Shown here one piece after another: positions 9,730 through 64,000 of a DNA stretch of 64,000 nucleotides. How positions within the stretch are numbered: position 1 is the stretch's first letter; each line of letters opens with the position of its first letter. Location of the stretch: NCBI GenBank assembly GCA_041665025.1, contig JBAYJP010000005.1, positions 11,056-75,055 of the forward strand. The letters run 5' to 3'. The position numbers and the translations under genes were made by a program. The notes under the pieces are model-generated. The model was given only the letters and a program-made list of their open reading frames with translations. It ran no database searches and was not told the DNA's origin. Origin of the DNA: Candidatus Magasanikiibacteriota bacterium (GTDB lineage Bacteria; Patescibacteriota; Patescibacteriia; Magasanikbacterales; UBA922).

Positions 9730-10920
9730 ATGCGCACATTATTATACAACATCAAGACAAGCGAACTAACACCAGGCGGTATACTGCGTCTGACGGCTGT
9801 TCCGATGCGTCCACGAGATAGGATGTATTATAAACCAGGACAGTACGCCATGATTGCGTATGAACTTTCAAAAGAATACCAAAAGTTTCATTCCTTTAGT
9901 ATCGTAAGCAGTCCGCTTGATGAACATATTTCGTTTGCTATCAAAGTGTCTGGTCCATTCACGCAGTCACTCGCGAGTTTACCTATAGGTTCTCTTATCG
10001 CAGTGCGTGGTCCATATGGCTCTTTTGTTTTGCGTGAACACGATACCAAAGATAGTGTACTTTTTGCTGCGGGTATTGGCATCACACCATTTGTGAGCAT
10101 GTTGAGGTACGCACATGAGACACAACAGCCTCAGAATATTCATTTATTATATAGTGTTCGATCGTCATGTGATGTTCCATTTATTGATATTATCAATCAT
10201 ATTGGAGAGGATAATTCGCGGATACGTCCAACCATTACTGTCACCGGAGGCGAAGATATTGTGCCCCATGGTTTTATAAAAGGAAGAGTTTCAAAAGAAC
10301 TTATTGAGTCCATAATTCCACGTTCCATTCATGCAACCCGATTTTATATATGTGGTCCATCAGTATTTATTCACGCTGTAGAAGATATGCTGACTGAGTT
10401 AGCTGTACGTCAAAAATATGTATATACCGAAGATTTTGTTCCTTCGGCACGCGTATTATGGAAACAGCCAGTACCGCTTGTAGCAAGTACGGCAGCTATT
10501 GCCGCGTCGGTTTTTGTTTTTTCCCTTGCCACAAATGCGCACGATGTCTCTGCGTTTGCAGATAAATCTTTCAATCGGCTTAATACAATATTTAATGCGA
10601 CAGATGTAAATGCCGCGGTTACTAAACAAAGAGAACAAGTGTTGTCACAAGAACAATATGAAACATACAGCGTGCCGCAAATTACCACAGTGCTCGTGCC
10701 AAGGCAGACGGCTGAGCAGATCAGTGTTATGGAACAAACAGTAGTGACAAAACAAGTGACTGCACAGCCGATACCGCAAGCAGCTCCGGCAGTTGTCCAA
10801 AATCCACCGCGCTCTACAAGTCTAGCACCTCAACAAGTTGCAACTCCTGCTCCCGCTGCTGTACAGCCAAAACCAGTCATCATGCCCACTCCGCCGCCTC
10901 CACGAACACAGGTGTCATAA
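9730..10920 (+). CDS. FNR-type FAD/NAD(P)-binding oxidoreductase module with a C-terminal TM anchor and a Pro/Gln-rich tail
   Basis: FAD-binding RxYS-like motif HSFSIVSSP and an NAD-binding motif. A TM segment AAIAASVFVFSLA near the C terminus is followed by a PQ-rich tail PAAVQPKPVIMPTPPPP. Confidence 0.6.
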   Translation: MRTLLYNIKTSELTPGGILRLTAVPMRPRDRMYYKPGQYAMIAYELSKEYQKFHSFSIVSSPLDEHISFAIKVSGPFTQSLASLPIGSLIAVRGPYGSFVLREHDTKDSVLFAAGIGITPFVSMLRYAHETQQPQNIHLLYSVRSSCDVPFIDIINHIGEDNSRIRPTITVTGGEDIVPHGFIKGRVSKELIESIIPRSIHATRFYICGPSVFIHAVEDMLTELAVRQKYVYTEDFVPSARVLWKQPVPLVASTAAIAASVFVFSLATNAHDVSAFADKSFNRLNTIFNATDVNAAVTKQREQVLSQEQYETYSVPQITTVLVPRQTAEQISVMEQTVVTKQVTAQPIPQAAPAVVQNPPRSTSLAPQQVATPAPAAVQPKPVIMPTPPPPRTQVS

Positions 10921-10995
10921 AAATTATTCTAACTTATACCAATTGTTCCAATTGGTCGAGACAAATATTAATTTCAAATAGATTAAGCCTTTATT

Positions 10996-11499
10996 ATGAG
11001 AAAAAAATATCTCCACATATACAGTTTTTTAGCAGTTTTTCTTATTGCTTTTTTTGCGTGTGCGCCGTCGTTATACGTGCATGCAGAAGATGAGGACGAG
11101 GCTTTCAAACAAGAAATAGAGCGTGTTCGTGAAGAACAAAAACAAGAGCTTGAAAGAGAGCGTGAAGAAGAAAAAAAAGAGGATGAGTACGAAGCAGAAA
11201 GAGAGGATGAATATGAAGATGAAGATTACTTTGAAGGGCCTCAACAAGTCCAGCCACAACCCGAACCTATTGTCGAGGAACAGCCGCTCGAACAACCAGT
11301 GGCACAACAACCAATTATGACTCAAGTAACTGAAACAGTCCCCACAACTCGCGTAGTTGAAAAGCCCGTAATACAAATGGTAGAACAATATCAAACAACG
11401 TATGTAACGCAATATAGAAAGACAAATAACTATATTGTGAGTGATGTAAATATGAATGGCGTAGTTGATCAATTTGAATTGATCGTGGCAGGTAGTTAG
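10996..11499 (+). CDS. Secreted highly acidic protein (Glu/Asp-rich) with a Pro/Gln linker
   Basis: Signal peptide MRKKYLHIYSFLAVFLIAFFACA; an EDEDE/EREREEEKKEDEYE low-complexity stretch; C-terminal DVNMNGVVDQFEL. Confidence 0.4.
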   Translation: MRKKYLHIYSFLAVFLIAFFACAPSLYVHAEDEDEAFKQEIERVREEQKQELEREREEEKKEDEYEAEREDEYEDEDYFEGPQQVQPQPEPIVEEQPLEQPVAQQPIMTQVTETVPTTRVVEKPVIQMVEQYQTTYVTQYRKTNNYIVSDVNMNGVVDQFELIVAGS

Positions 11500-11570
11500 T
11501 GTGGTATTGAGTAGTTTAGTTATCTAAAATTCTTTTAAAATTTTGAATTCCAAATTAAAAATTTACGAGT

Positions 11571-12539
11571 ATGTATTGGACATTCGGCTTTGATGCCTGG
11601 GATACAACGATTTCCGGCACGGTAGATGTCGGAGAAAAGTATGACGAATCGACGTTGGCTGATTTGGAACAGCAATTAAAAGCTGACGCAGAAATGTACG
11701 CGAAGATATGTTCACGTTTTGATAACGCAAGTGAGATATCGCAGTTGAATGAACAAACTGATAACGAAGTGGTTGTGAGTGAACGACTGTCTGATATGTT
11801 GGAAAAGGCGCAAAAGACCTATAGGGAGACACACGGCATATTTGACCCTACAATTTTGAAAGCTCTTGAACATAGTGGGTATGATAAAACATTTTTGAAT
11901 ATCTCTGATGATGATCCATCAACCCATATATACGAAAAACGTGATTTGATTGTGAGACAACACGCGGGACGTCCCCAGTTTAGTGAAATAAGACTACACA
12001 AAGATAAACACAGCGTATATATGCCGCTTGGCATGCGGATTGACCTTATGGGAATTGCAAAAGGGTATTGGGTAGATTATGCGGTTGAACAATTTTTTTC
12101 TGAATATCAATCATTGTGGCTTTCCGCAGGTGGAGATATATATGTGAAAGGCATGGATGAAAAACAAGAGCCGTGGAAAATTATAGTGCAAGATCCGTTT
12201 GACCTTTCAAATAATATCGGCTATTTTACGCATACAGCCAAAAAAGATTTTGGTGTTGCGACATCGGGTATTACGAAGCGCATGGGTATGAGTGGGGCAG
12301 GTAAATGGCATCATATTATTGATCCACGTACTGGCTTGCCATCAGAAAGTGATGTCGTATCAGCTACAGTTTGCGCGCCGAGTGTGGCAGATGCGGATGT
12401 GTATGCCAAGACTGCGGTTATACTCGGGTCTCACCAAGCGCATTTATTTTTTTTATCACGTCCGGAATGTGAGTATGTGCTTGTGGATGTGAATGGGCGA
12501 GTGTATTATTCTCAAAACTTGTCATTCCGAGCGACCTAA
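11571..12539 (+). CDS. apbE: FAD:protein FMN transferase (ApbE family)
   Basis: ApbE motifs IDLMGIAKGYWVDYA, LSAGGDIYVKG and GAGKWHHIIDPRTGLP. Confidence 0.8.
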   Translation: MYWTFGFDAWDTTISGTVDVGEKYDESTLADLEQQLKADAEMYAKICSRFDNASEISQLNEQTDNEVVVSERLSDMLEKAQKTYRETHGIFDPTILKALEHSGYDKTFLNISDDDPSTHIYEKRDLIVRQHAGRPQFSEIRLHKDKHSVYMPLGMRIDLMGIAKGYWVDYAVEQFFSEYQSLWLSAGGDIYVKGMDEKQEPWKIIVQDPFDLSNNIGYFTHTAKKDFGVATSGITKRMGMSGAGKWHHIIDPRTGLPSESDVVSATVCAPSVADADVYAKTAVILGSHQAHLFFLSRPECEYVLVDVNGRVYYSQNLSFRAT

Positions 12540-12640
12540 TGGAGTCGAGGAATCTCTTTTTAAATCACCGAGTGACGCATAGAAAAGGGATCCCTCGATT
12601 GCGCTCATTCGTCCCTCATTCGCTTCACTCGGCATGACAA
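12521..12640. repeat. Imperfect long inverted repeat built from two copies of the TCATTCCGAGCG...GAGGAATC motif family
   Basis: gtcattccgagcgacc...tcgaggaatc at the left; gatccctcga...cactcggcatgac at the right is its near reverse complement. Overlaps the apbE stop and fills the spacer to the next gene. Confidence 0.45.
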
Positions 12641-12650
12641 TTGTAAACAT

Positions 12651-13529
12651 ATGTTCAAGAAAAAAGAAACAATCTACGGAGTCGTCACATTATGTTTAGT
12701 CATTATATTTTCTTTGGTATTTTTTAATACAACAAAGGCACAAACTACATCTTCTATTTATGCTCAAGATCCAGATCCAAAAGATACAGATATAGATGGT
12801 CTCACTGATCAAGGAGAAAAGTATTTGTTTGGGACTGACCCAACTCTACCCGATACAGACGCAGATGGATACCTCGATGGCGCAGAAGTATTGTCACAGA
12901 CTGACCCACTTGATCCTATGAGTCCCGGCACGGTAGCACAAGTGAAGACAATACGTGAAGTTCCATGGCCATGGTACAGCGCCCGAGCCGCGGGGATTAT
13001 TAGTTATATTTTATTATTTTTTATTACGATATCTGGTATTGCATTGTCTACCGGGGCGCTTTATCGCGTGTTTGGACAAGTGTGGGGATGGCGCATGCAT
13101 CAGTGGATTGGGATTATGATGATGGTGAGTGTTGTCGGACATGTAGTCGCGCTTGGGCTTGATACATTTATGAGTTTTTCTCTTGCAGAACTTCTCATAC
13201 CATTTGCGACTGATTACAAGCCAGTGCTCATGGCCTCCGGCATTGTGAGTTTCTATTTTTTTCTCATACTTATTTCCACATCATTATTTGTGATTCAAAA
13301 AAAATACCGTTTGTGGAGATATTTTCATTATTTGTCATTTCCCATGTTTGCTGGAGCATTTGTACATAGTGTGCTCTTGGGTACCGATTCAAAAACGCTT
13401 ACGATGACGATAATGTATTGGGCTACGGCGATTATTGTAGGATTGTTTGTGATTTATCGGATTTTGTATCGGAAGATTCAAGGGAGAGTGTTTCATCAGC
13501 ATCTGGGGCACGTAACACATAACACATAA
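12651..13529 (+). CDS. Ferric-reductase-like bis-heme transmembrane domain protein with N-terminal TSP3-like calcium-binding repeats
   Basis: Signal/TM, then DPDPKDTDIDGLTDQGE...DTDADGYLDGAE (thrombospondin type 3-like Asp repeats). Six TM helices carry His pairs spaced 13 apart (RMHQW...VGHVV and YFHYL...FVHSV), as in NOX/MsrQ heme ligands. Confidence 0.6.
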   Translation: MFKKKETIYGVVTLCLVIIFSLVFFNTTKAQTTSSIYAQDPDPKDTDIDGLTDQGEKYLFGTDPTLPDTDADGYLDGAEVLSQTDPLDPMSPGTVAQVKTIREVPWPWYSARAAGIISYILLFFITISGIALSTGALYRVFGQVWGWRMHQWIGIMMMVSVVGHVVALGLDTFMSFSLAELLIPFATDYKPVLMASGIVSFYFFLILISTSLFVIQKKYRLWRYFHYLSFPMFAGAFVHSVLLGTDSKTLTMTIMYWATAIIVGLFVIYRILYRKIQGRVFHQHLGHVTHNT

Positions 13530-53952: not shown

Positions 53953-55302
53953 ATGTTTTTGTATTTAGTCTTAATCGTAATCCTTATGAACAACTACCAC
54001 ATCAAACTTACAGAAAAAGATATCCCAGAGTCATATTTGAATCTTTCATATTATCTAGACAAATACTACGGCAAACTTCCTGATCCCCCGTTGCATCCGG
54101 GTACAAAACAACCTGCTGGCCCGCAAGATTTGTCCCCCATATTTCCGATGGGCGTGATTATGCAAGAAGTAAGCTTGGACGAGTTTATTCCTATCCCCGA
54201 CGAAGTGCGTGAATTATACAAAATGTTTCGTCCGTCTCCGCTTATTCGCGCGTATAGATTGGAAAAAGAATTGGACACGCCGGCGCATATCTATTACAAA
54301 TACGAAGGCGGCAATGCAACTGGTAGCCATAAATTAAATAGTGCTTTAGCCCAAGCATATTACAATAAGCAGGAAGGTGTTGAGACAATCGTGACTGAAA
54401 CGGGGGCAGGGCAGTGGGGTTCTGCGTTAAGCATCGCGTGCCATTATTTTGGGCTCAAGTGCAAAGTATTTATGGTGCGTATTTCATACGAGCAGAAGCC
54501 ATATCGTAAAGTGATTATGAAGATGTATGGATCAGACGTCTATTCAAGCCCTTCAATTCAAACAGAATATGGTCGTAAAGTTTTGGAACATGATCCAGAG
54601 ACGCCCGGTAGTCTTGGTATAGCTATTAGTGAAGCGCTCGAGCTTGCAGTACAAGATGAAAAAACAAAATACGCGCTTGGCAGTGTACTTAATCATGTCT
54701 TGCTTCATCAAACAGTAATTGGACAAGAAGCAAAAAAACAAATGGAACTTGCAGGAGAATATCCAGATATGGTAATCGGATGCTGTGGAGGAGGAAGCAA
54801 TTTCGCAGGCATTGCATTTCCATTTATTGCAGATACATTGTCTGGTGTGGAGACAAGCACTCGCTTTATTGGCGTAGAGCCGGTATCGTGTCCGTCGCTT
54901 ACCAAGGGAGAATACAAATACGATTTTGGTGATACTGCACAAATGACCCCACTTCTCAAAATGAAAACGTTAGGTTCGGATTTTATTCCAAGTAAGATTC
55001 ATGCAGGCGGACTTCGCTATCATGGTATGGCACCGCTTGTTTCGTTTTTGCATGAAGAAAAATTTATCGAAGCGCGCGCGTATGATCAATTGGAAGTATT
55101 TGAAGCAGGTACGCAGTTTGCGCGCACTGAAGGAATTATCCCGGCTCCGGAATCATCGCATGCAATAAAAGCAGCAATAGATGAGGCGATGAAGTGCAAA
55201 GAGAGCGGGGAAGAAAAAGTTATATTGTTTAATTTATCAGGGAATGGATTACTTGATTTGCAGGGATATGATGATTACTTAGCGGGGAAGTTGAGGAATT
55301 AA
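53953..55302 (+). CDS. TrpB-like PLP-dependent enzyme (tryptophan synthase beta-2 type)
   Basis: Long TrpB2-type N terminus. [11 protein letters not shown] is the PLP-lysine region and [16 protein letters not shown] the glycine-rich loop. Confidence 0.75.
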
Positions 55303-55304
55303 AA

Positions 55305-55330
55305 AACAACCTCGCTTTTGCAAGGTTGTC
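55305..55330. terminator. Hairpin caacct-cgcttttgca-aggttg preceded by an A-run. Shares the AAAAACAACCTCG left flank with the hairpin at 2746.
   Basis: T-run on the minus strand; lies 70 nt past the stop of the small GC-rich gene. Confidence 0.4.
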
Positions 55331-55399
55331 GTTCTTTCCTCTGTTTCCTGTAATCAAGAAACAAAGGAATGGAAGCTGGGAGGTAGGTCATTCCCCAGC

Positions 55400-55576
55400 T
55401 TAGCTCCGCTCGGGGGTGCGGAACAGGCGCCACTCGAGGATGGCGCCGACGATGCCAAAGGCAATGGCGCCGAGGATGGCACCAGGCTTGCCTTCGCCCG
55501 GTCCCACGAGTGTGGACAGCGCGGCGCCAGCAAAGGCACCGGCTACCGCCAAGTGGGAAGTAATCAGACCTTCCAC
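55400..55576 (-). CDS. GlsB/YeaQ/YmgE-like small membrane protein (Transgly_assoc-like), GC-rich with a GTG start
   Basis: VEGLITSHLAVAGAFAGAALSTLVGPGEGKPGAILGAIAFGIVGAILEW matches the YeaQ pattern PGKDGGG...ILGIVGA..GGW. AAGGAGG lies 6 nt before the GTG. Codons are strongly G/C-ending. Confidence 0.5.
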   Translation of the reverse strand: MEGLITSHLAVAGAFAGAALSTLVGPGEGKPGAILGAIAFGIVGAILEWRLFRTPERS

Positions 55577-55684
55577 GGTTTTCCTCCTTTCCGTGGAAGA
55601 ACACACTCGTTACTAAGCGGGATGTCCGTTTTTCACATGTGTGTTGTTGATAGTCTATACGTTTATAGATCTCTAGTCAAAGAT

Positions 55685-56077
55685 ATGAAAATAATATTAT
55701 TGGATATTTCACAACTCAAAACTCACGAAAAAACTTCTCCCAAACGTGTTAGAAAGGTTGTTGAATTGATCAAAAAGAAAGGCCAATTTATAAAGCCAAT
55801 TATTGTTGAAAAAAATACACATGTTATTCTCGATGGCCATCACCGTATCGAAGCATTAAAAAAATTAGGATACACAAGAGCGCCGTGTTTTTTGGTTGAT
55901 TATATGGATGATGAAGTGAGGGTTTATTTGAGAAGAAAAGATTTGCCCATGAATTTGATCAAGCAATTTATTTTGAGCGTTGCGTTGACTGATAATTCTT
56001 TTGAAAGGAAGACGACAAGACATTATATTCCGGATAGGAGAGGAAAGATACATGTGGCATTAGAGAAGTTGTTATGA
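55685..56077 (+). CDS. ParB/Srx-like nuclease-domain protein (small)
   Basis: MKIILLDISQLKTHEKTSPKRV...IILDGHHRIEALKKLGY. Start at the ATG at 55685. The six-frame ORF extends upstream through the antisense strand of the GC island. Confidence 0.5.
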   Translation: MKIILLDISQLKTHEKTSPKRVRKVVELIKKKGQFIKPIIVEKNTHVILDGHHRIEALKKLGYTRAPCFLVDYMDDEVRVYLRRKDLPMNLIKQFILSVALTDNSFERKTTRHYIPDRRGKIHVALEKLL

Positions 56078-56168: not shown

Positions 56169-57407
56169 ATGAAATTATCAAAATTATTAATGGCTATCTG
56201 TATAAGCGCAATTTTCACCCTGGGCATTTTTGGTTTGCATCTGTCTGCTCCAAGCGTGATAAATAATTTTTCAGCAGATAGCAACCGGATTTCGGATGCC
56301 TTCGCAAAAGACATGTATGCATACCACCAAACAAACCCGGAGTTTGCCAGGCGCATAGTTACTTCTTCATTGATTGAAACAGTTCATGTGGTATGTGGCT
56401 TAGATTATGCCTACAGCTTTGTATGGGTAAATTTTAGTTTGTTATTTTTGTGCGGAATTATTTTGTATTATCTTGCGCGAAGTTTTTCACTGTCACATCG
56501 CACCTCACTTTTGACCGTTGCCTTATTTTATACAAGTTTTACTATTTTGTTTGCTTTTTTTGCAGATATTTTCAGCTACGACGACCCGCTGCAATATGTA
56601 TGTATATTCTTGACTATGCTTGCGCTATCGCATAGACAATGGTTTTTTGCTTCATGCGCGTGGTTTGTTGCAGTGTTTGCTCGCGAGACCTCAGTTTTAC
56701 TCATTCCCGGTTTGTTATTGTTATTTTGGTCCTCGCATATTACTCAAGAGTTGCCTCTAAGAAAAAAAATAATATATTTTGCTTTGACTTTTGGAGTTCC
56801 TATTGCGATGTATGTAGGACTTATATATATGTATTTGAGCCATATCAATTTTCTTGAAATGAGTTCGCAGTATTTCCAAAATGAACGCTGGTCGCATGTT
56901 GCTTTTAATTTTGGAAGTCTTCAACAAAGCAGTGAAACCATTATCTCGTTATTTCTGGCAAGTGGAATTATTGTCTACGCACTGTATCACTATATTGTCT
57001 CAGGTTTATCTACAGCTTTTGACAAAAAAGTCTTGCTTGCTTTTCTCATTACCAGCGCAATAAATATACCTCTTGTGTTGCTTGGAGCTCGGGCACGGGA
57101 AGTGCGGTTATTCGCATTTCCTCTTGTATTTATGTGGCCTTTTGCAGGTTGGTATGTGAGTAGGGTTCTCAAGGTTTTTCCGTTTAAAGAATATGTGGAA
57201 AGCTGGCGCAAGAGAGAACACCTCATTTCAAATACTATATTTTTAGTCTTTGGCCTCGTATTAATAGGTGTAGCGTACTTATTTTCTTGGTATGTATATC
57301 AACCGATTAGCAGTGCCGGCATATATTTTCAGATGTATATTTTTGTCCTCTTAGTGTTCGTGATTATTTATGAGCTCATTACTTTTCAGGTTAGAAGTGA
57401 TGTGTAG
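56169..57407 (+). CDS. Polytopic integral membrane protein of unknown function (possible GT-C/polymerase-like)
   Basis: At least 10 TM helices; no diagnostic motif. Confidence 0.35.
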   Translation: MKLSKLLMAICISAIFTLGIFGLHLSAPSVINNFSADSNRISDAFAKDMYAYHQTNPEFARRIVTSSLIETVHVVCGLDYAYSFVWVNFSLLFLCGIILYYLARSFSLSHRTSLLTVALFYTSFTILFAFFADIFSYDDPLQYVCIFLTMLALSHRQWFFASCAWFVAVFARETSVLLIPGLLLLFWSSHITQELPLRKKIIYFALTFGVPIAMYVGLIYMYLSHINFLEMSSQYFQNERWSHVAFNFGSLQQSSETIISLFLASGIIVYALYHYIVSGLSTAFDKKVLLAFLITSAINIPLVLLGARAREVRLFAFPLVFMWPFAGWYVSRVLKVFPFKEYVESWRKREHLISNTIFLVFGLVLIGVAYLFSWYVYQPISSAGIYFQMYIFVLLVFVIIYELITFQVRSDV

Positions 57408-57471
57408 TTTGCCTCTTGTTTTTATAGTCGAGTTTAGATACAATTTAAGTATAATTATTAAAAATTGAGTT

Positions 57472-57972
57472 ATGGCGAGACATTCTGAACTTAGGTTGGT
57501 ACCTCCACTGTCTGAAGATGAACGTAGTCCTGCTTTGCGTGTTATAAAAAAAGAGAGTAGGTTAAACTCTAAAGAGTTGGATGAATATAAGGAACCAAGT
57601 GAAAGAGAAAAAGAAGTTAGCAAGACAAAAAATAGAATCCTTGGTTGCCTTCAGCGCAAGGATGTTGATGGCTTGGTTTCGAATTTGGTTAAGCTGGACA
57701 AATTATTTGTAGGTCGAGATGAAACCATGCTTAGTAATAGTTCTGATGTTCTCAGATCTCAAGTAATAGGTTTTTTCGATAGTATTAAATTCCAGCAAAC
57801 ATTAAAAAATTATCATCTAGAATTGAAAATACAAATGTGTGAGGGGCAAATGGAATTGTTGCTTGGTGAAAATAAAAATGCAGGAAGTAAATTACCTGCT
57901 CAAATTATGTTAATGCAAGAAGGAAATACAGAAATATATATGGGGTCTAAAACATTAGAAACAGAAGATTAA
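57472..57972 (+). CDS. Hypothetical protein
   Basis: ORF only. Confidence 0.3.
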   Translation: MARHSELRLVPPLSEDERSPALRVIKKESRLNSKELDEYKEPSEREKEVSKTKNRILGCLQRKDVDGLVSNLVKLDKLFVGRDETMLSNSSDVLRSQVIGFFDSIKFQQTLKNYHLELKIQMCEGQMELLLGENKNAGSKLPAQIMLMQEGNTEIYMGSKTLETED

Positions 57973-57986
57973 CATAAGTTATGTAT

Positions 57987-59135
57987 ATGTCCAAAAAACA
58001 AATAATTGTCTCAGGTATTCAACCAACGGGCAATCTTCATATTGGAAATTATCTAGGCGCAGTGAAAAATTGGGTAGAACTGCAAAATTCTGGGAAATAT
58101 CAGATGTATATTTTTATTGCAGATTATCATTCACTCACGGGCAATATGAAGCCCAAAGAGCGCCGCGCACAGATTATGCGTACAGCCGCAGAACTTTTGG
58201 CAGCCGGAATTGATCCAGAGAAGACAGTTTTTTGGGTACAGTCTCATGTGCCAGAGCACACTGAATTGGCGTGGGTGTTTAACAGTATAACTCCAATAGG
58301 TGAATTAAAAAGGATGACACAGTTTAAGGATAAGGCAGGTATTAGCGATTATGAGGAAGTAATTGATGAAATTTATAAATATGAAAAAAATAGATTGATT
58401 TTAACTATACTTGCTGAGAGGATGGAAAAAAATAGTGTAAAATATAAGCAACAGAGAGACAAGGCGAAGGAACTTTTGAAAACTATTGAGAAATTAATAA
58501 TTCGGGAAGAGAACAAAGCAAATACCGGTCTTTTAACTTATCCTATTCTGCAAGCCGCAGATATTTTACTGTATCATGGCGAGATGGTACCTGTTGGCCA
58601 AGATCAAATTCAACATGTTGAACTAACTCGTGATGTCGCTCGATGGTTTAATAATCGATATAGCGATTATTTTCCTGAGACAAAACACCTTCTTACTCAC
58701 ATACCAAAAGTCATGAGTTTGGTTGAACCGCATAAAAAGATGAGCAAGAGTTTGGGTGCTGATCATGTGATAGAGCTTGCTGACGAGCCGAGTGTAATTG
58801 AGAAAAAACTCAAAAAAGCAGTGACTGCAACTGAAGGCGGAGGAGAAGCACCAGGCGTTGTTAATTTATTATCGTTATTAAAAGAATTCGGAAACAAAAA
58901 AGTTCATGATGAATTTGTAAAAGCAGAAAAAGATGGAACTATTCGTTATGGCGATTTGAAAAAAGTGCTTGGAGAATCAATTTCAACATATTTTGCAGAC
59001 TTTAGAAGTCGTCGAGCTGAATTGCTTGATAATCATGGTGAACTTGCAGAGATTCTTGGCAAAGGTGCGCAAAAAGCGCAACTAGTTGCGTCGAAGACAA
59101 TGGAAGATGTGAGAGGATTGATAGGAGTAAGATAA
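57987..59135 (+). CDS. trpS: Tryptophan--tRNA ligase with an insertion of about 50 aa
   Basis: HIGH-type QPTGNLHIGNY, YPILQAADIL and KMSKS. An extra segment lies between KDKAG and GLLTYP. Confidence 0.85.
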   Translation: MSKKQIIVSGIQPTGNLHIGNYLGAVKNWVELQNSGKYQMYIFIADYHSLTGNMKPKERRAQIMRTAAELLAAGIDPEKTVFWVQSHVPEHTELAWVFNSITPIGELKRMTQFKDKAGISDYEEVIDEIYKYEKNRLILTILAERMEKNSVKYKQQRDKAKELLKTIEKLIIREENKANTGLLTYPILQAADILLYHGEMVPVGQDQIQHVELTRDVARWFNNRYSDYFPETKHLLTHIPKVMSLVEPHKKMSKSLGADHVIELADEPSVIEKKLKKAVTATEGGGEAPGVVNLLSLLKEFGNKKVHDEFVKAEKDGTIRYGDLKKVLGESISTYFADFRSRRAELLDNHGELAEILGKGAQKAQLVASKTMEDVRGLIGVR

Positions 59136-59165
59136 GCGGATCACATAGCCTAATCAGATAATTTT

Positions 59166-60206
59166 ATGGGACCACAAGAATTTCCCCGTCCTTCTTTTGT
59201 AAAAGAGGGTGTAAAGGTTTCTCCCCTTTTGGAAAATAAAAGATTTGGGGAAGGCAGTTTTGCAGTGGTTGCTAGGCTAGAAAATTTGCCAGAAGAAGTG
59301 CGTGAACACGTCCCAGATGGCTATGTAGTAAAATACTATAAAAATACTGAATTTGATCGTAATTGGGGACAAAGTATTTTTTCTTATGATCGAGAAATAG
59401 GTTATGGTTCAAATGTTTTATTAGATACAGATCTTCAGACATTTTGTACCGATGCATTGATGTTAGCAAGAATTAAAGGTAGTGTTCCGACTGTTGATCA
59501 ACTGCGGGAATATGCCATGGATCGTGGGTTTAAGCTTCAGGAATATCAAATTAGGCAGGCGTGGAAGGTTGTGAGGAGTTATTCGCTATCTGGTATTGCC
59601 AAGAGACTGCAAGATCGTCATGAGTGTGTCAAAGAATTTTTTTCTGATGTTTCTCCAGAATTAGTTGTTCCAACAAAATTTTTAGTAGGTGAAACTTCAG
59701 GAAATCAGAAAAGATTATTTGAAATACAGCCCAATATTCCTGGACGATGTAAATTTTCTATGCCTGATAAATTAAATTTTATAATTTTATGCGTGGGTAA
59801 ACATTATGATCGCCAACGATTAGCAGACACAGAAGGACTAGATGAAAAACATTTTTCAGAAGAAAATCTAAGTCGCATTTTAGAAGAGTCTAGTGTCTCG
59901 GTAGCCAACGAAATCCGGAGGTCTTTCCCCCACGAATCACATGTGATCAAAGAAGAGCTAGAAAGAGTTATGAATAAAGCACCCGACTTTGTATTGGCAC
60001 ATGGCCAGATACCTTATGATATATTTTTTTTAAGTAACATGCTGATTACGAGAAAAGGACCGCGCATTATTGATACAAATTTAGCTGTCCCAAATTTTCC
60101 AGAGGACGAGGGTGTTCATCTGTCTCCGTCTCCCAAACTTGCTGAATATACTTACAACCAAAGCATCCTTTTTTGGAAAAAAGTAGCAGAAAAATTACCC
60201 GGGTAG
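59166..60206 (+). CDS. Hypothetical protein with protein-kinase-like motifs (atypical kinase fold?)
   Basis: Gly-rich loop-like KRFGEGSFAVV and YVVKYYK; later HGQIPYDIFFLSN and IIDTNLA. Weak. Confidence 0.3.
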   Translation: MGPQEFPRPSFVKEGVKVSPLLENKRFGEGSFAVVARLENLPEEVREHVPDGYVVKYYKNTEFDRNWGQSIFSYDREIGYGSNVLLDTDLQTFCTDALMLARIKGSVPTVDQLREYAMDRGFKLQEYQIRQAWKVVRSYSLSGIAKRLQDRHECVKEFFSDVSPELVVPTKFLVGETSGNQKRLFEIQPNIPGRCKFSMPDKLNFIILCVGKHYDRQRLADTEGLDEKHFSEENLSRILEESSVSVANEIRRSFPHESHVIKEELERVMNKAPDFVLAHGQIPYDIFFLSNMLITRKGPRIIDTNLAVPNFPEDEGVHLSPSPKLAEYTYNQSILFWKKVAEKLPG

Positions 60207-60210
60207 GTCT

Positions 60211-61533
60211 ATGAAAAAATCATTATTACCTCTTTTCATTATCTTCAATCTTCTTATTATTTTTTACTTCTGGTTTGTCGGATCAGGAGATCTCATTCTT
60301 TCAGGAAATACAGAACAAATATTATTATCGCTCGGCAGACTATCCGGCTTGTTGGCCGTATTTTTTGTATTACTACAGCTTATCCTTATTGGTCGGCTCA
60401 GTTGGGTTGAATGCGTATTTGGTATGGATAAATTATCGCGTCTGCATCATTGGAATGGCATTATTGCATTTGGATTTATTATTACTCACCCTATTTTACT
60501 CGGACTTTCATACGCACGATTCAATGAGGTCTCTTTTTTTCAGCAGTTAGTCGACTTTACATTCAGATGGGAAGAAGTGGGGGGTGCAGTTTTAGGAACG
60601 TTATTATTTGCCGTCATTGTCATTTCATCTATGGTAGCGGGACTGCGCAAAGTGAAATATGAATTTTGGTTTTGGGTTCATTTTACTGTGTATCTTGCAA
60701 TTTTGCTTGTGTTTGAACATGAGATAGAAGTTGGGGGAGATTTTGTAGGACAACCACTATTTGTGGCGTATTGGTATGCACTATACGCGTTTGCAATTGG
60801 AAATTTGGTGTTATTTAGATTTGTGCGTCCTGCATATTATTTTTATACACATCGTTTTTACGTTGATAAAGTGGTGCGTGAAACAGCAAGTACGGTTTCT
60901 ATTTATATAAAGGGAAGGAAAATGGATCAATTTAAAATTGAAGCCGGGCAATTCATGATTTTTCGTTTTCTAGATGCAAAACGATGGTGGCAAGCGCATC
61001 CTTTTTCGCTGTCATGCGCGCCAAATGATGAATACCTGCGCATTACCGTAAAAAATGTAGGTGACTTTACGTCAGAAATTTCTGGAGTCAAGGTGGGAAC
61101 TCCTGTTTTAGTTGATGGGCCTCATGGCATATTTACTAAAAAAGTTGCACGTAGCAATAAACTATTGTTTGTTGCTGGAGGTGTAGGGATAACGCCCATT
61201 CGGTCGCTTGTTGAACAGATGGCGCAAGAAAAAAGAGAGCTCACCCTAGTTTATTCAAATAAATATAGTAGTGACATTGTCTTTTTTAGCGAACTTGAAT
61301 TGCTTGCCGAGCAGTATCATTTTGAGTTGTATCATGTGCTAAGTGATGATCACGCATGGCAAGGACTCAAAGGAAGGATACATATTGATATGCTTAAACA
61401 GTTGGTGAATGATGTGGATGAACGAGATGTGTATGTATGTGGCCCTCCTGCCATGATGGAAAGTGTCATTAACATATTACAAAAGATGTTTGTTTCAAAG
61501 CAGAGAATTCATTTTGAAAAATTTTCTTTGTAA
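60211..61533 (+). CDS. NOX/ferric-reductase family protein (bis-heme TM domain plus FAD plus NAD(P)H domains), bacterial NADPH-oxidase-like
   Basis: TM His pairs LHHW...ITHP and VHF...EHE spaced 13-14 apart; FAD motif HPFSLS; NAD motifs GGVGITP and CGPPAM. Confidence 0.7.
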   Translation: MKKSLLPLFIIFNLLIIFYFWFVGSGDLILSGNTEQILLSLGRLSGLLAVFFVLLQLILIGRLSWVECVFGMDKLSRLHHWNGIIAFGFIITHPILLGLSYARFNEVSFFQQLVDFTFRWEEVGGAVLGTLLFAVIVISSMVAGLRKVKYEFWFWVHFTVYLAILLVFEHEIEVGGDFVGQPLFVAYWYALYAFAIGNLVLFRFVRPAYYFYTHRFYVDKVVRETASTVSIYIKGRKMDQFKIEAGQFMIFRFLDAKRWWQAHPFSLSCAPNDEYLRITVKNVGDFTSEISGVKVGTPVLVDGPHGIFTKKVARSNKLLFVAGGVGITPIRSLVEQMAQEKRELTLVYSNKYSSDIVFFSELELLAEQYHFELYHVLSDDHAWQGLKGRIHIDMLKQLVNDVDERDVYVCGPPAMMESVINILQKMFVSKQRIHFEKFSL

Positions 61534-61726
61534 CCCTTTCCGTTTTGGTACGGAGTAAAACTTATTAGACATCACATCGCTTGACTTTGCTCACGAGTAT
61601 TTCTATACTCGTCACATGAAATCCCCCATTTCATACTTCTATCTCACTTTTCTAAAAAATAAATAGCAAAAACCCTATCCGGGTTTTTTGTTTTTTTAAT
61701 TTATTTATACATTATCTTATCCCCAT

Positions 61727-64000
61727 ATGGCCATACGGAAAAAAGTTTTACCCCTATTTCTTTTTTCTATTTTATTTTTTTCATTAATTCCTTTTGTATC
61801 AGCCGACGCTCTCACATACGGATTTAAAGTGCAATCATGTACGCAAGATGTTGACGGAGCCTATTTTGTGGTGAATGGAAAAAGTTTGGTCATGAAAAAT
61901 GGATGTACAACAGGGACGAGCCAGATATATGGAATTGAATATACATGTCTCAGCAACACGCGTCTGAAAGTCGAATGGACAGACGAGTGTCCGGTCCAGA
62001 CTCCGGAACCTGAGCCATCTCCCGAACCTACACCCGAACCAACTCCAGCTCCTGCACCCACTCCGACGACAACACCAACACCAGAACCTACGCCAACACC
62101 CACTCAATCACAAGAAGAATATTTGTCTTTGCCGCAATATAGCAGTTTTTATGTGAGCGGTTCATCACAAGTAGTAAATGACACAGGATTTAATATTAGA
62201 AATGGGTGGGGCAATATTGAGCTCCGGTTAGATTATTCTCCCGCATTAAATTTTCAAACATACGAGTATCTTCAATTTACTATTGATTACAATCTTCAAT
62301 CAGGCACATCTGTTTCAGCGCAGACTATTAAACAGCCAACTGAATTGTATACCATGAGCGGATGGGGAAGTGCTCTAGAATCTACGCGGTATCTTTTGCC
62401 TGCAGAGACTACAAGTGGCAATGAGGTCACTGTCCGAGTTCCACTTCAGAGCCTCGTTTCAAGCGGATATAATTCAGCGTACATTAACCATTTATTTTTG
62501 AGATTTTATCCCAACGGAGGTCCAGCCAATATTGACGTAGTACTAAAAGATGTGAAATTAGTCCGTACCATTACGGTGCCGACCCCGGTTCCTGAACCAA
62601 CACCAGAACCTACACCAGTACCTACTCCAATTCCAGAACCTGAACCAACACCAACACCAACACCGGAGCCTGTCCCAGAACCAGAACCACTTCCTGCAAA
62701 TGCCATGGTTATTGACGCAACACAGACAAAAGTCCCGTATGTTGACCGTGGAGTCCTCGGTGGTAATTCAATGAACGATCGAGCATGGGATTATAATTTC
62801 GATATATTTACAGAACTTGGAGGTAATGCACAACCTGTAGGGAATAATCTTAATCGTCCTTTGTGGCGCATGCACATGTGGGACACGGGCGTTCATAAAA
62901 ATTATTGGATGTATGGACAAGGTTTCGGCCGTATGACTGATGGACTGTATAACCCCATGATTCCTCAGACAGATAATGGTCAGACAGTAAGTACGTATAG
63001 CTGGCAATTACAAAAACCAATGAAGGACATGCAAGTTCAATATCCGAGTGGCGAAACAACACAAAATTATTATGAAGTAGAATGGTTTGATCGTTCAGCG
63101 ACATTATCCGAAAAATTTAATCGACATGCTGTTAGTTACACCAAAAAGTCTGGCTCCACGACGCAAATTCATATCATTTCGAATCGAGAACAAACCGGTG
63201 TTACTACATTCCCTGAGCATGGCAGGTATACTCGTTTTGATTTCAAGTTATCTTCTGATGTTCAATACGCCGTGAATAGCGCCGCGCTTATTGGTAAGTC
63301 AAATCAATTTCAGATGGTACTTCGACCTGACAGAAAGTTTGAAATCCGTTTTGGAAATCAAACTGTTGTTTCTTCAGAGGTAGTTGAATTTGACCGATGG
63401 TATGGAATTGAAATATTAACTGATAATACTTCAAAAGTATGGGTTGATGGACAGATGATTGGACAAATAACATTATCATCGCTTGATATCACGCCAAGTG
63501 GTAGGTCAACAGATGTTCGATTTGGCACATTACTTAAGGATTGGGCACAAGATCCTACATTGAATGCGGAAACACAGCGTCAGGATTCATACAAATTCAA
63601 GATTGATGAACTTATGCTTGGTACATCATATTTTGGGACTAATCCTGATATGCCTCTTGATCAGACATTTGCAAATAAATACAAAAACGGAGTGATTGTG
63701 TGGCATAGTTTTGATAACAACATCATGACACTTGATGATTATGGTCAAATGGCAGAAAAAATGAACGCAGAATTGCTGTTACAACTTCCGTCTCCAAAAG
63801 AAACAACCTACGGGTCGCAATCAAATACGTGGACAGGGTTTTTCAAAGATTTATACAGCGTTGAAGGGCTGACCGCAATGATTAAATATATGGTCGGAAC
63901 GCCAGACGCAGACTATGTACAAAAAGTTGAAGAATTGAAACAAGCTGGATGGCCAGTTAATGTTGCCCAGTACAATTATGCAAACTTGCGTGCCAGTCGT
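61727..64000 (+). CDS. Large secreted multidomain protein with two Pro/Thr/Glu linkers (3' partial; runs off the window)
   Basis: Manual translation from the ATG at 61727 stays open to 64000 and is absent from the ORF track because no stop is reached. It has a signal peptide and the linkers PEPEPSPEPTPEPTPAPAPTPTTTPTPEPTPTPT and PTPVPEPTPEPTPVPTPIPEPEPTPTPTPEPVPEPEP. Confidence 0.55.
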   Translation, partial: MAIRKKVLPLFLFSILFFSLIPFVSADALTYGFKVQSCTQDVDGAYFVVNGKSLVMKNGCTTGTSQIYGIEYTCLSNTRLKVEWTDECPVQTPEPEPSPEPTPEPTPAPAPTPTTTPTPEPTPTPTQSQEEYLSLPQYSSFYVSGSSQVVNDTGFNIRNGWGNIELRLDYSPALNFQTYEYLQFTIDYNLQSGTSVSAQTIKQPTELYTMSGWGSALESTRYLLPAETTSGNEVTVRVPLQSLVSSGYNSAYINHLFLRFYPNGGPANIDVVLKDVKLVRTITVPTPVPEPTPEPTPVPTPIPEPEPTPTPTPEPVPEPEPLPANAMVIDATQTKVPYVDRGVLGGNSMNDRAWDYNFDIFTELGGNAQPVGNNLNRPLWRMHMWDTGVHKNYWMYGQGFGRMTDGLYNPMIPQTDNGQTVSTYSWQLQKPMKDMQVQYPSGETTQNYYEVEWFDRSATLSEKFNRHAVSYTKKSGSTTQIHIISNREQTGVTTFPEHGRYTRFDFKLSSDVQYAVNSAALIGKSNQFQMVLRPDRKFEIRFGNQTVVSSEVVEFDRWYGIEILTDNTSKVWVDGQMIGQITLSSLDITPSGRSTDVRFGTLLKDWAQDPTLNAETQRQDSYKFKIDELMLGTSYFGTNPDMPLDQTFANKYKNGVIVWHSFDNNIMTLDDYGQMAEKMNAELLLQLPSPKETTYGSQSNTWTGFFKDLYSVEGLTAMIKYMVGTPDADYVQKVEELKQAGWPVNVAQYNYANLRASR

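Follow-up and report, generated by a model that had tools for sequence, protein, structure and literature searches.

Does a gene for a kinase-like protein that ends just ahead of a gene for an NADPH oxidase (NOX)-type enzyme denote a regulatory pair, or do two independent genes simply lie side by side? The question is raised by a stretch of 64,000 nucleotides, here termed the window, from a metagenome-assembled genome (MAG) of Candidatus Magasanikbacteria (candidate phyla radiation, CPR, or Patescibacteria; 440-kb contig; GC ~38-42%), for which an earlier note had proposed the pairing of a regulatory kinase with an oxidoreductase that generates reactive oxygen species (ROS) or reduces ferric iron. 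Comparison with related loci speaks against that proposal. A NOX-profile search of the retrieved flanks found no NOX gene at any of the nine other independent loci carrying a homologue of the kinase-like gene, the corresponding search with a profile of the kinase-like family was negative at the three other NOX loci (L008, L009/10 and L011/12), and across all retrieved loci the two profiles co-occurred in the window alone. We consider these to be, with good probability, two functionally independent genes placed side by side, the first of them encoding a protein of a new, divergent family with a predicted kinase fold (here PKL, for protein-kinase-like), and their adjacency is most likely incidental and specific to this genome. 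The genes in question, with positions counted from the first nucleotide of the window, are as follows.

57981-59135, + strand: trpS, tryptophan--tRNA ligase (NCBIfam TIGR00233, E 3.8e-86), upstream neighbour of the PKL gene
59166-60206, + strand: gene for a 346-residue protein of predicted protein-kinase-like fold, outside curated families, in the slot of variable content that separates trpS from the NOX gene
60211-61533, + strand: gene for a 440-residue single-chain NOX/FRE-type protein with a six-transmembrane (TM) di-heme ferric-reductase domain followed by FAD and NAD(P)H domains (PF01794 + PF08022 + PF00175)
61668-61688, + strand: terminator-like hairpin and T-run 3' of the NOX gene (consensus scan)

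Both open reading frames (ORFs) lie where the earlier note had placed them, the NOX start following the upstream stop after 4 nt (TAG GTCT ATG), and the gap between trpS and the PKL gene is 30 nt. Since these gaps are short, hold no terminator-like site in a consensus scan and are followed by a hairpin only after the NOX gene, co-transcription of trpS, PKL and NOX is likely from the layout, and the hairpin probably marks the end of the co-directional unit. The protein encoded by the first gene of the pair is 100% identical to the hypothetical protein WCW16_04835 of a Candidatus Magasanikbacteria MAG, and the NOX-type protein is 100% identical to a 'ferredoxin reductase family protein' of the same MAG.

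The adjacency can be read against the trpS-NOX region of relatives, where gene orders are as follows.

L008 (closest relative; NOX 77% and TrpRS 84% identical): trpS, an unrelated 223-residue gene, NOX
L009/10: trpS, genes of 318, 108 and 153 residues, none related to PKL, NOX
L011/L012 (Magasanikbacteria GW2011_GWC2_37_14): TrpR, TrpB-like, trpS, NOX, with the slot empty

A conserved Magasanikbacteria backbone, namely trpB2, trpS, a variable slot and NOX, runs through this region, and in the window the slot is filled by PKL. DNA homology between the window and L008 (blastn) spans trpS and NOX and stops at the borders of PKL, with none across 59115-60209. Because the slot in relatives is empty or occupied by unrelated genes, and because homology to L008 ends at the PKL borders, the adjacency is taken to be specific to this genome. 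The intervals compared were 59136-60210 in the window, 2226-2897 in L008, 844-2641 in L009 and 5888-6000 in L011. None of the slot genes (those of 223, 318, 108 and 153 residues and PKL itself) matches a library family, save for a weak precomputed EamA/Multi_Drug_Res match of the 108-residue gene. The L008 gene and the 318- and 153-residue genes of L009 were considered as diverged PKL homologues and proved not to be homologous, and a recent foreign insertion of PKL was rejected on composition, its GC content being 0.378 and that of trpS and NOX 0.377 each.

Seen from the side of PKL, the comparison comprises ten independent contexts, that is, the window and nine further loci, most of them on short contigs.

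L001: SemiSWEET, then an M23-like protein
L002: a T5orf172/MUG113 protein
L003-L005 (JGI metagenome contigs): PKL between LutA (CCG) and LutB (LUD + 4Fe-4S), followed by desulfoferrodoxin
L006: TrmD upstream
L007: RecO and AspRS upstream
L016 (= L022): a CsaA-like tRNA-binding protein, NUDIX and HD upstream; an alpha/beta hydrolase and a histidine phosphatase downstream
L023: WecG, CBU_0592, PKL
L024/25: a convergent Fe/Mn superoxide dismutase (SOD) 13 nt from PKL
L026-28 and the closely related L019: UppS, NUDIX-WecG, PKL, GluRS, M23

The PKL gene is typically co-directional with its neighbours, with very short gaps and within housekeeping operons; in L003-L005 it lies inside an operon of the lactate-utilisation type, 42 nt and 14 nt away from the genes on either side. 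An all-against-all BLASTP of the neighbours found no recurrent small partner gene outside one closely related subclade. L019 (CAZXML010000001.1) is labelled 'uncultured Gammaproteobacteria bacterium', and its ClpB, WecG and GluRS are 89%, 60% and 74% identical to their counterparts in L026, a Magasanikbacteria MAG with the same order of these genes. A CPR contig that was wrongly labelled or binned is the probable explanation and, given the ClpB identity, L019 constitutes neither an independent nor a non-CPR context for PKL.

What, then, is the protein that fills the slot? The 346-residue protein has no match in Pfam, NCBIfam or the PDB sequences, and none of the kinase family hidden Markov models (HMMs) examined (Pkinase, APH, RIO1, Kdo, HipA_C, CotH and Choline_kinase) matches it at E <= 1, so that the search of 59166-60206 with Pkinase, APH and CotH suggested in the earlier note came out negative. 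Exhaustive HMMER searching of 1.84 billion representatives gathered a family of 47 proteins at E <= 1e-3, 89-430 residues in length, and a profile search of a collection of 5.8 billion proteins returned just 3 proteins, none of which added to it. Those members that were looked up belong to clusters of one or two sequences and lie mostly on short contigs. A degenerate DNA pattern, N-x3-T-x2-G-x-R-x2-DTN, identified two true loci among 8 matches in a genome scan, re-found L001 alone in a metagenome scan and gave nothing real in a viral scan. PADLOC and PHROGs had no match for PKL, for three other members, for the slot genes of relatives or for the 166-residue gene upstream, so that an origin in defence systems or phages is not indicated. 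The family is small and fast-evolving and so far lies in Patescibacteria-type contigs. One of 41 aligned members matches Pfam RIO1 at E 0.01, and no Pfam family is common to more than one of them.

The alignment of these 41 members reveals as near-invariant positions G30, V35, V54, K56, Y58, A145, L148, R151, F159, P164, E186, Q188, D285, N291, G298, D303 and N305. Five of them, namely K56, D285, N291, G298 and D303, are each found in 40 of the 41 sequences, and N305 in 39. Two stretches carry the putative catalytic residues.

59331-59333, + strand: codon of K56, the beta3 'VAIK'-type Lys within motif YVVKxY (Lys in 40/41; predicted strand 53-58)
60012-60080, + strand: equivalent of the catalytic loop and Mg-binding loop, P283-x-D285-x5-N291-MLIT-xx-G298-x-R300-I-I-D303-T-N305

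A search of the PDB sequences with the PKL profile gave the Ser/Thr kinase StkP (E 0.016), and in this alignment the PKL pattern P-x-D-x5-N-L-x-x-T-x-x-G-x-R-I-I-D-T-N lies against HRDLKPQN...DFG with a one-residue gap, the Asp-to-Asn spacing of PKL being one residue longer (D-x5-N). From this alignment, D285 corresponds to the catalytic Asp, N291 to the Asn of the loop and D303 to the Asp of DFG. The ATP phosphates would be held by K56, with D285 serving as catalytic base and N291 together with D303 as the Mg2+ ligands. Of the three motifs on which the earlier note had based its kinase assignment, 'IID' stands, as it contains D303, and the 'G-loop' survives in degenerate form, keeping G30 alone (37/41; G28 in 15/41), but 'HGQ' (H279-Q281) does not, H279 being present in 1/41 members and outside the catalytic loop. 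Between K56 and beta4 there is no Glu conserved in >= 90% of members that could represent the alphaC Glu, and the alphaC-like helix carries A145, L148 and R151.

Structure prediction places the family in the protein-kinase-like superfamily. The AlphaFold2 model of the 346-residue protein, built with the family alignment, has a predicted local distance difference test (pLDDT) score of 92.9 and a predicted TM-score (pTM) of 0.91, and that of P0016, a compact member of 264 residues, a pLDDT of 90.3. With the P0016 model, all of the top 50 Foldseek matches in the PDB have a kinase fold (JAK2, PKR, PknB, GCN2, p38, SRPK, PknG and several APHs among them), and with the window model the top 50 do so save for one SARS-CoV-2 polymerase complex at rank 38; probabilities are 0.96-1.00 and the best E is 5.7e-4. 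The TM-scores of the PKL models, at 0.3-0.43, place the family far from any solved structure. The earlier note had named motifs that align to no kinase fold as the outcome that would overturn its assignment; what is found is that the models match kinases and APHs and that D285-D303 aligns to StkP. A bilobal protein-kinase-like fold is supported by these models and an intact set of catalytic residues by the alignment; most likely, then, the protein represents a new divergent family of phosphotransferases that use ATP and are active.

Its predicted architecture is a minimal one. In the model a helical bundle precedes the catalytic loop, and after D303 there follow ~40-43 residues, namely a loop of ~19 residues and one helix (323-343); an activation segment (DFG...APE) and the alphaF-alphaI substrate-binding C-lobe are absent from it. 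In these respects it is closer to atypical kinases of the RIO/Bud32 or APH/choline-kinase kind than to Hanks-type regulatory kinases. With these atypical kinases PKL shares the bilobal fold, the beta3 Lys, the catalytic Asp...Asn loop and the metal-binding Asp, as well as the absence of the activation segment and the short region past the DFG equivalent. It differs from them in that no HMM of those families matches it, in having 'DTN' in place of DFG and no His before the catalytic Asp, and in its degenerate Gly-rich loop and lack of a conserved alphaC Glu, while two features are its own: the motif F-x-R-P-x-F in the N-terminal part and, between beta3 and the alphaC-like helix, ~70 inserted residues that are helical and vary among members. 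As modelled, the topology resembles APH/choline-kinase or RIO-type enzymes more than Hanks-type regulatory kinases, so that a small-molecule or other non-canonical substrate is favoured. PKL would add to the protein-kinase-like superfamily a compact and highly divergent family that curated models do not detect, unusual in its D-x5-N and DTN catalytic signature and its minimal C-lobe.

The downstream gene is of a familiar kind. Pfam assigns to the 440-residue protein, in the order PF01794-PF08022-PF00175, Ferric_reduct (residues 46-167, E 1.5e-12), FAD_binding_8 (E 1.7e-11) and NAD_binding_1, matches that lie far outside what chance would give. For the last domain the generic FNR model PF00175 scores E 7e-23 and the NOX-specific one, NAD_binding_6 (PF08030), just E 7e-5. 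Kyte-Doolittle peaks lie at ~5-23, 37-55, 84-102, 127-145 and 183-201, and the His-bearing segment at 150-170 makes the sixth. The conserved features were read from an alignment of the protein with 27 homologues of 44-77% identity (28 sequences in total).

60445-60720, + strand: codons of the four heme-ligand His, H79 (60445-60447), H93 (60487-60489), H157 (60679-60681) and H170 (60718-60720)
60997-61011, + strand: FAD motif HPFSL, residues 263-267 (matched by the regular expression of Hajjar et al. 2017; H263, P264, F265 and S266 invariant)
61180-61197, + strand: NAD(P)H motif GVGITP, residues 324-329 (regular expression; G324 and G326 invariant; I327, T328 and P329 >= 90%)
61438-61530, + strand: CGP motif, residues 410-412, through to the C-terminal E436-K-F438-S-L (C410, G411, P412, E436 and F438 invariant)

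G323 is likewise invariant. The four histidines form the pairs H79-x13-H93 and H157-x12-H170, the x13 spacing in TM3 being that of NOX2. All four are invariant among the 28 sequences, which settles the one doubt the earlier note had raised about this protein, that the His ligands might be missing, and the one-chain NOX/FRE hallmarks it had listed (two TM His pairs, HPFS and the NAD motifs) are borne out by Pfam, motif expressions and alignment alike. Bacterial NOX enzymes have been defined by sequence motif filters (Hajjar et al. 2017, PMC5676040), namely H[PSA]F[TS][LIMV], two His-x12/14-His motifs at least 20 residues apart in TM3 and TM5, and 3-7 TM helices ahead of an FAD/NAD dehydrogenase region at the C-terminus (PMC5676040), and every one of these sequence filters is passed.

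The closest solved relatives by phmmer against the PDB are the full-length SpNOX structures 8qt6, 8qta and 8qq7 (E 3.6e-19 to 2e-18), with NOX2 and NOX5 far weaker matches, which upholds the comparison with SpNOX drawn before. H157 and H170 align with the SpNOX TM5 histidines (PDB sequence match; H129/H142 in the numbering of PMC11031084). In SpNOX, the hemes are held by H69/H129 and H82/H142 and F397 stacks on the FAD (PMC11031084), to which F438 is likely to be the equivalent FAD-stacking aromatic. Like SpNOX (8qq7/8qt6), the enzyme consists of one chain that has six TM helices and short extracellular loops, carries two bis-His heme sites (TM3/TM5) and is devoid of regulatory domains, and with it and the prokaryotic NOX/FRE subgroup it shares the motifs HPF[ST], GxGxxP and CGP as well as a Phe at the C-terminus close to the flavin. 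It differs in that the phmmer alignment is restricted to residues 129-429, with an identity that looks low by eye, in its TM3 spacing (x13, against x12 for H69/H82 of SpNOX, PMC11031084) and in coming from a Patescibacteria lineage. With MsrQ and two-component ferric reductase domain (FRD) systems it has in common the PF01794 di-heme TM domain and the outward transfer of electrons that an NAD(P)H-flavin reductase supplies in the cytoplasm, but it is a fusion with its own FAD/NAD domain, and no ApbE, FMN-binding or MsrP partner lies near its gene.

By homology, cytoplasmic NAD(P)H would reduce an FAD flanked by HPFS and F438, and electrons would then pass to an inner heme (H79/H157), an outer heme (H93/H170) and an acceptor outside the membrane, two-heme and FAD binding and the NAD(P)H electron path being expected on the same grounds. 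Candidate acceptors are O2, Fe(III) or a partner protein; in SpNOX, the characterised homologue, the acceptor is O2, yielding superoxide, although the authors state that its physiological function and acceptor are not established (PMC11031084). There are at least 1990 homologues at E < 1e-20, the best 120 of which are all 403-477 residues long with the identical three Pfam domains, and the named ones, nearly all from Patescibacteria, are labelled 'ferredoxin reductase family protein' or 'predicted ferric reductase'. As a member of so large and uniform a family, already named automatically by NCBI, the gene is ordinary, and its sequence identifies the protein as a complete SpNOX-type enzyme of the NOX/FRE family. 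It changes little in itself, being one of thousands of uniform and already auto-annotated Patescibacteria homologues, yet a di-heme NAD(P)H oxidoreductase is evidently widespread in reduced, largely fermentative symbionts and has drawn little explicit comment in the literature.

How, then, should the pairing be read? Were PKL a dedicated regulator that phosphorylated NOX or a partner and so switched ROS production or ferric reduction, the two would form a two-gene module, as the shared strand, the 4-nt gap without a terminator, the intact catalytic residues of PKL and a weak thematic echo in the desulfoferrodoxin and superoxide dismutase near other members would all allow. We hold this to be very improbable. 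The nine other PKL loci without NOX and the three other NOX loci without PKL stand against it, as do the unrelated slot gene of L008, the closest relative, and the empty slot of L011/12. The NOX family, with its at least 1990 homologues, vastly outnumbers the 47 PKL representatives, so that NOX enzymes of this family generally work without PKL; SpNOX is constitutively active (PMC11031084), and two parts of a regulatory kinase, its activation segment and its substrate-docking lobe, are missing from PKL. PKL is thus probably no dedicated NOX regulator, though probably co-transcribed with its neighbours, and the idea of a kinase-regulated bacterial NOX finds no support as matters stand. Several points nonetheless weigh against reading the two as independent genes, one of them for a new kinase. 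The 4-nt spacing and shared strand make co-transcription likely and perhaps translational coupling, so that a local link is conceivable; a superoxide-related gene is adjacent or one gene away at 3 of the 10 PKL loci (NOX here, desulfoferrodoxin in L003 and Fe/Mn SOD in L024), a category set post hoc in a small sample, albeit more than would be expected for such rare genes; and the comparison extends to just 10 independent PKL contexts, mostly short contigs. As to the kinase itself, the TM-scores are weak and no curated kinase HMM matches PKL, and with no conserved alphaC Glu and a degenerate Gly-rich loop catalytic competence is inferred only.

The remaining explanations look to other neighbours. 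PKL might act on the translation apparatus, either by phosphorylating a neighbouring aminoacyl-tRNA synthetase (aaRS) in the manner of HipA/HipT or as a RIO/Bud32-like ATPase on tRNA or the ribosome, which we consider quite unlikely, as is its corollary that the partner of PKL in the window is TrpRS and not NOX. At three of the ten independent loci PKL directly adjoins a co-directional aaRS gene, that for TrpRS in the window, for AspRS in L007 and for GluRS in L026 (as also in its close relative L019); TrmD adjoins PKL in L006, the gene for the CsaA-like tRNA-binding protein of L016/L022 is the third one upstream of PKL, and the RIO1 match of one member (E 0.01) points the same way; translation genes are, however, a large share of small CPR genomes, and a rough, post hoc estimate for the aaRS adjacency is p ~0.01-0.02. 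HipA-family kinases do phosphorylate GltX (HipA) and TrpS (HipT) (PMC6581861, PMC7029023). With them PKL shares a divergent kinase-like fold, a patchy distribution and fast evolution like that of accessory or toxin genes, and a place beside trpS, gltX or aspS, but neither HipA_C, Couple_hipA nor any toxin-antitoxin or defence model matches it, and no recurring HipB/HipS-like or other small antitoxin-like partner was found by BLASTP of the neighbours; the likeness is a lead, not membership. To our knowledge, moreover, HipA toxins are usually encoded away from their targets, and we know of no AspRS among the targets of the HipA family. A small-molecule (sugar or metabolite) kinase of cell-envelope polymer synthesis, for which the aaRS and NOX neighbours would be incidental, is unlikely too. 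It would suit the WecG/TagA-type glycosyltransferase directly or nearly upstream in one subclade (L019, L023, L026), the UppS genes near PKL in L026 and L003, the M23 peptidases of L001 and L026, the NUDIX domains upstream in two subclades, and a fold whose short post-DFG region and helical bundle before the catalytic loop recall the APH/choline-kinase topology, with APH(2''), APH(4), APH(9) and YihE among its matches. The WecG linkage, however, is confined to close contigs (ClpB 89%, L019 against L026) and may be simple synteny, Foldseek places eukaryotic-type protein kinases above the APHs, and no APH, Choline_kinase or Kdo HMM matches. There is likewise only a slim chance that PKL is a Patescibacteria-specific accessory kinase whose gene inserts co-directionally and with tight spacing among housekeeping genes and whose target is encoded next to it, whether for HipA/HipT-like control of an aaRS or in superoxide handling; in the window, either TrpRS or NOX would then be modulated. 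If PKL does act on neighbouring aaRS or redox enzymes, CPR bacteria would have a regulatory or toxin-like mechanism of a new kind.

Some further features of the window touch on these genes. A second, split NOX-like set, which the earlier note had pointed out at 9730-13529, does exist, and comprises the following.

9730-13529, first component: a 396-residue FAD/NAD reductase, FNR-like, which has a P/Q-rich tail and is anchored by one TM segment
9730-13529, second component: a 167-residue acidic secreted or anchored protein
9730-13529, third component: ApbE (flavin transferase)
9730-13529, fourth component: a TM protein that combines TSP3 repeats with a ferric-reductase domain and has the His pairs H150/H164 and H226/H239

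This locus is similar to the flavinylation-associated clusters termed 'MsrQ-like' (Meheust et al. 2021, PMC8238504); the [ST]GA[ST] flavinylation motif was not found in the neighbouring proteins at the locus. Past the end of the NOX gene, an open frame on the + strand runs unbroken from 61700 and continues past the window end at 64000, with a likely start codon a few codons in. The encoded protein begins like a signal peptide and has two linkers rich in Pro, Thr and Glu. On the minus strand, the 'GVGSG' ORFs of low complexity are the mirror image of this frame.

Upstream, TrpRS carries a K/E-rich insertion of ~54 residues (DNA ~58338-58532) just after its MTQFKDK motif. It is lineage-specific, being absent from the close relatives L008 and L011 (84% and 74% identical elsewhere), and the blastn alignment with L008 is interrupted at 58338-58532. 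Two genes that are missing at the corresponding position of L011 lie at 56169-57972, between trpS and the TrpB-like gene, the first for a 412-residue multi-TM protein that weakly matches NF046093 (E 5e-4), a family of cell-surface glycopolymer formation, and the second for a 166-residue protein without family match. Before them, 53953-56077 encodes a TrpB-like (TrpB2-type) pyridoxal phosphate enzyme (NCBIfam NF009057, E 1.6e-213) and then a 174-residue ParB-N-like protein that matches the N-terminal part of the ADP-dependent L-serine kinase SerK (E 7e-21) and SbnI (E 5e-6). Some TrpB2 enzymes use O-phosphoserine, and if this one does, the 174-residue protein could be a serine kinase that feeds tryptophan synthase within the trpS cluster.

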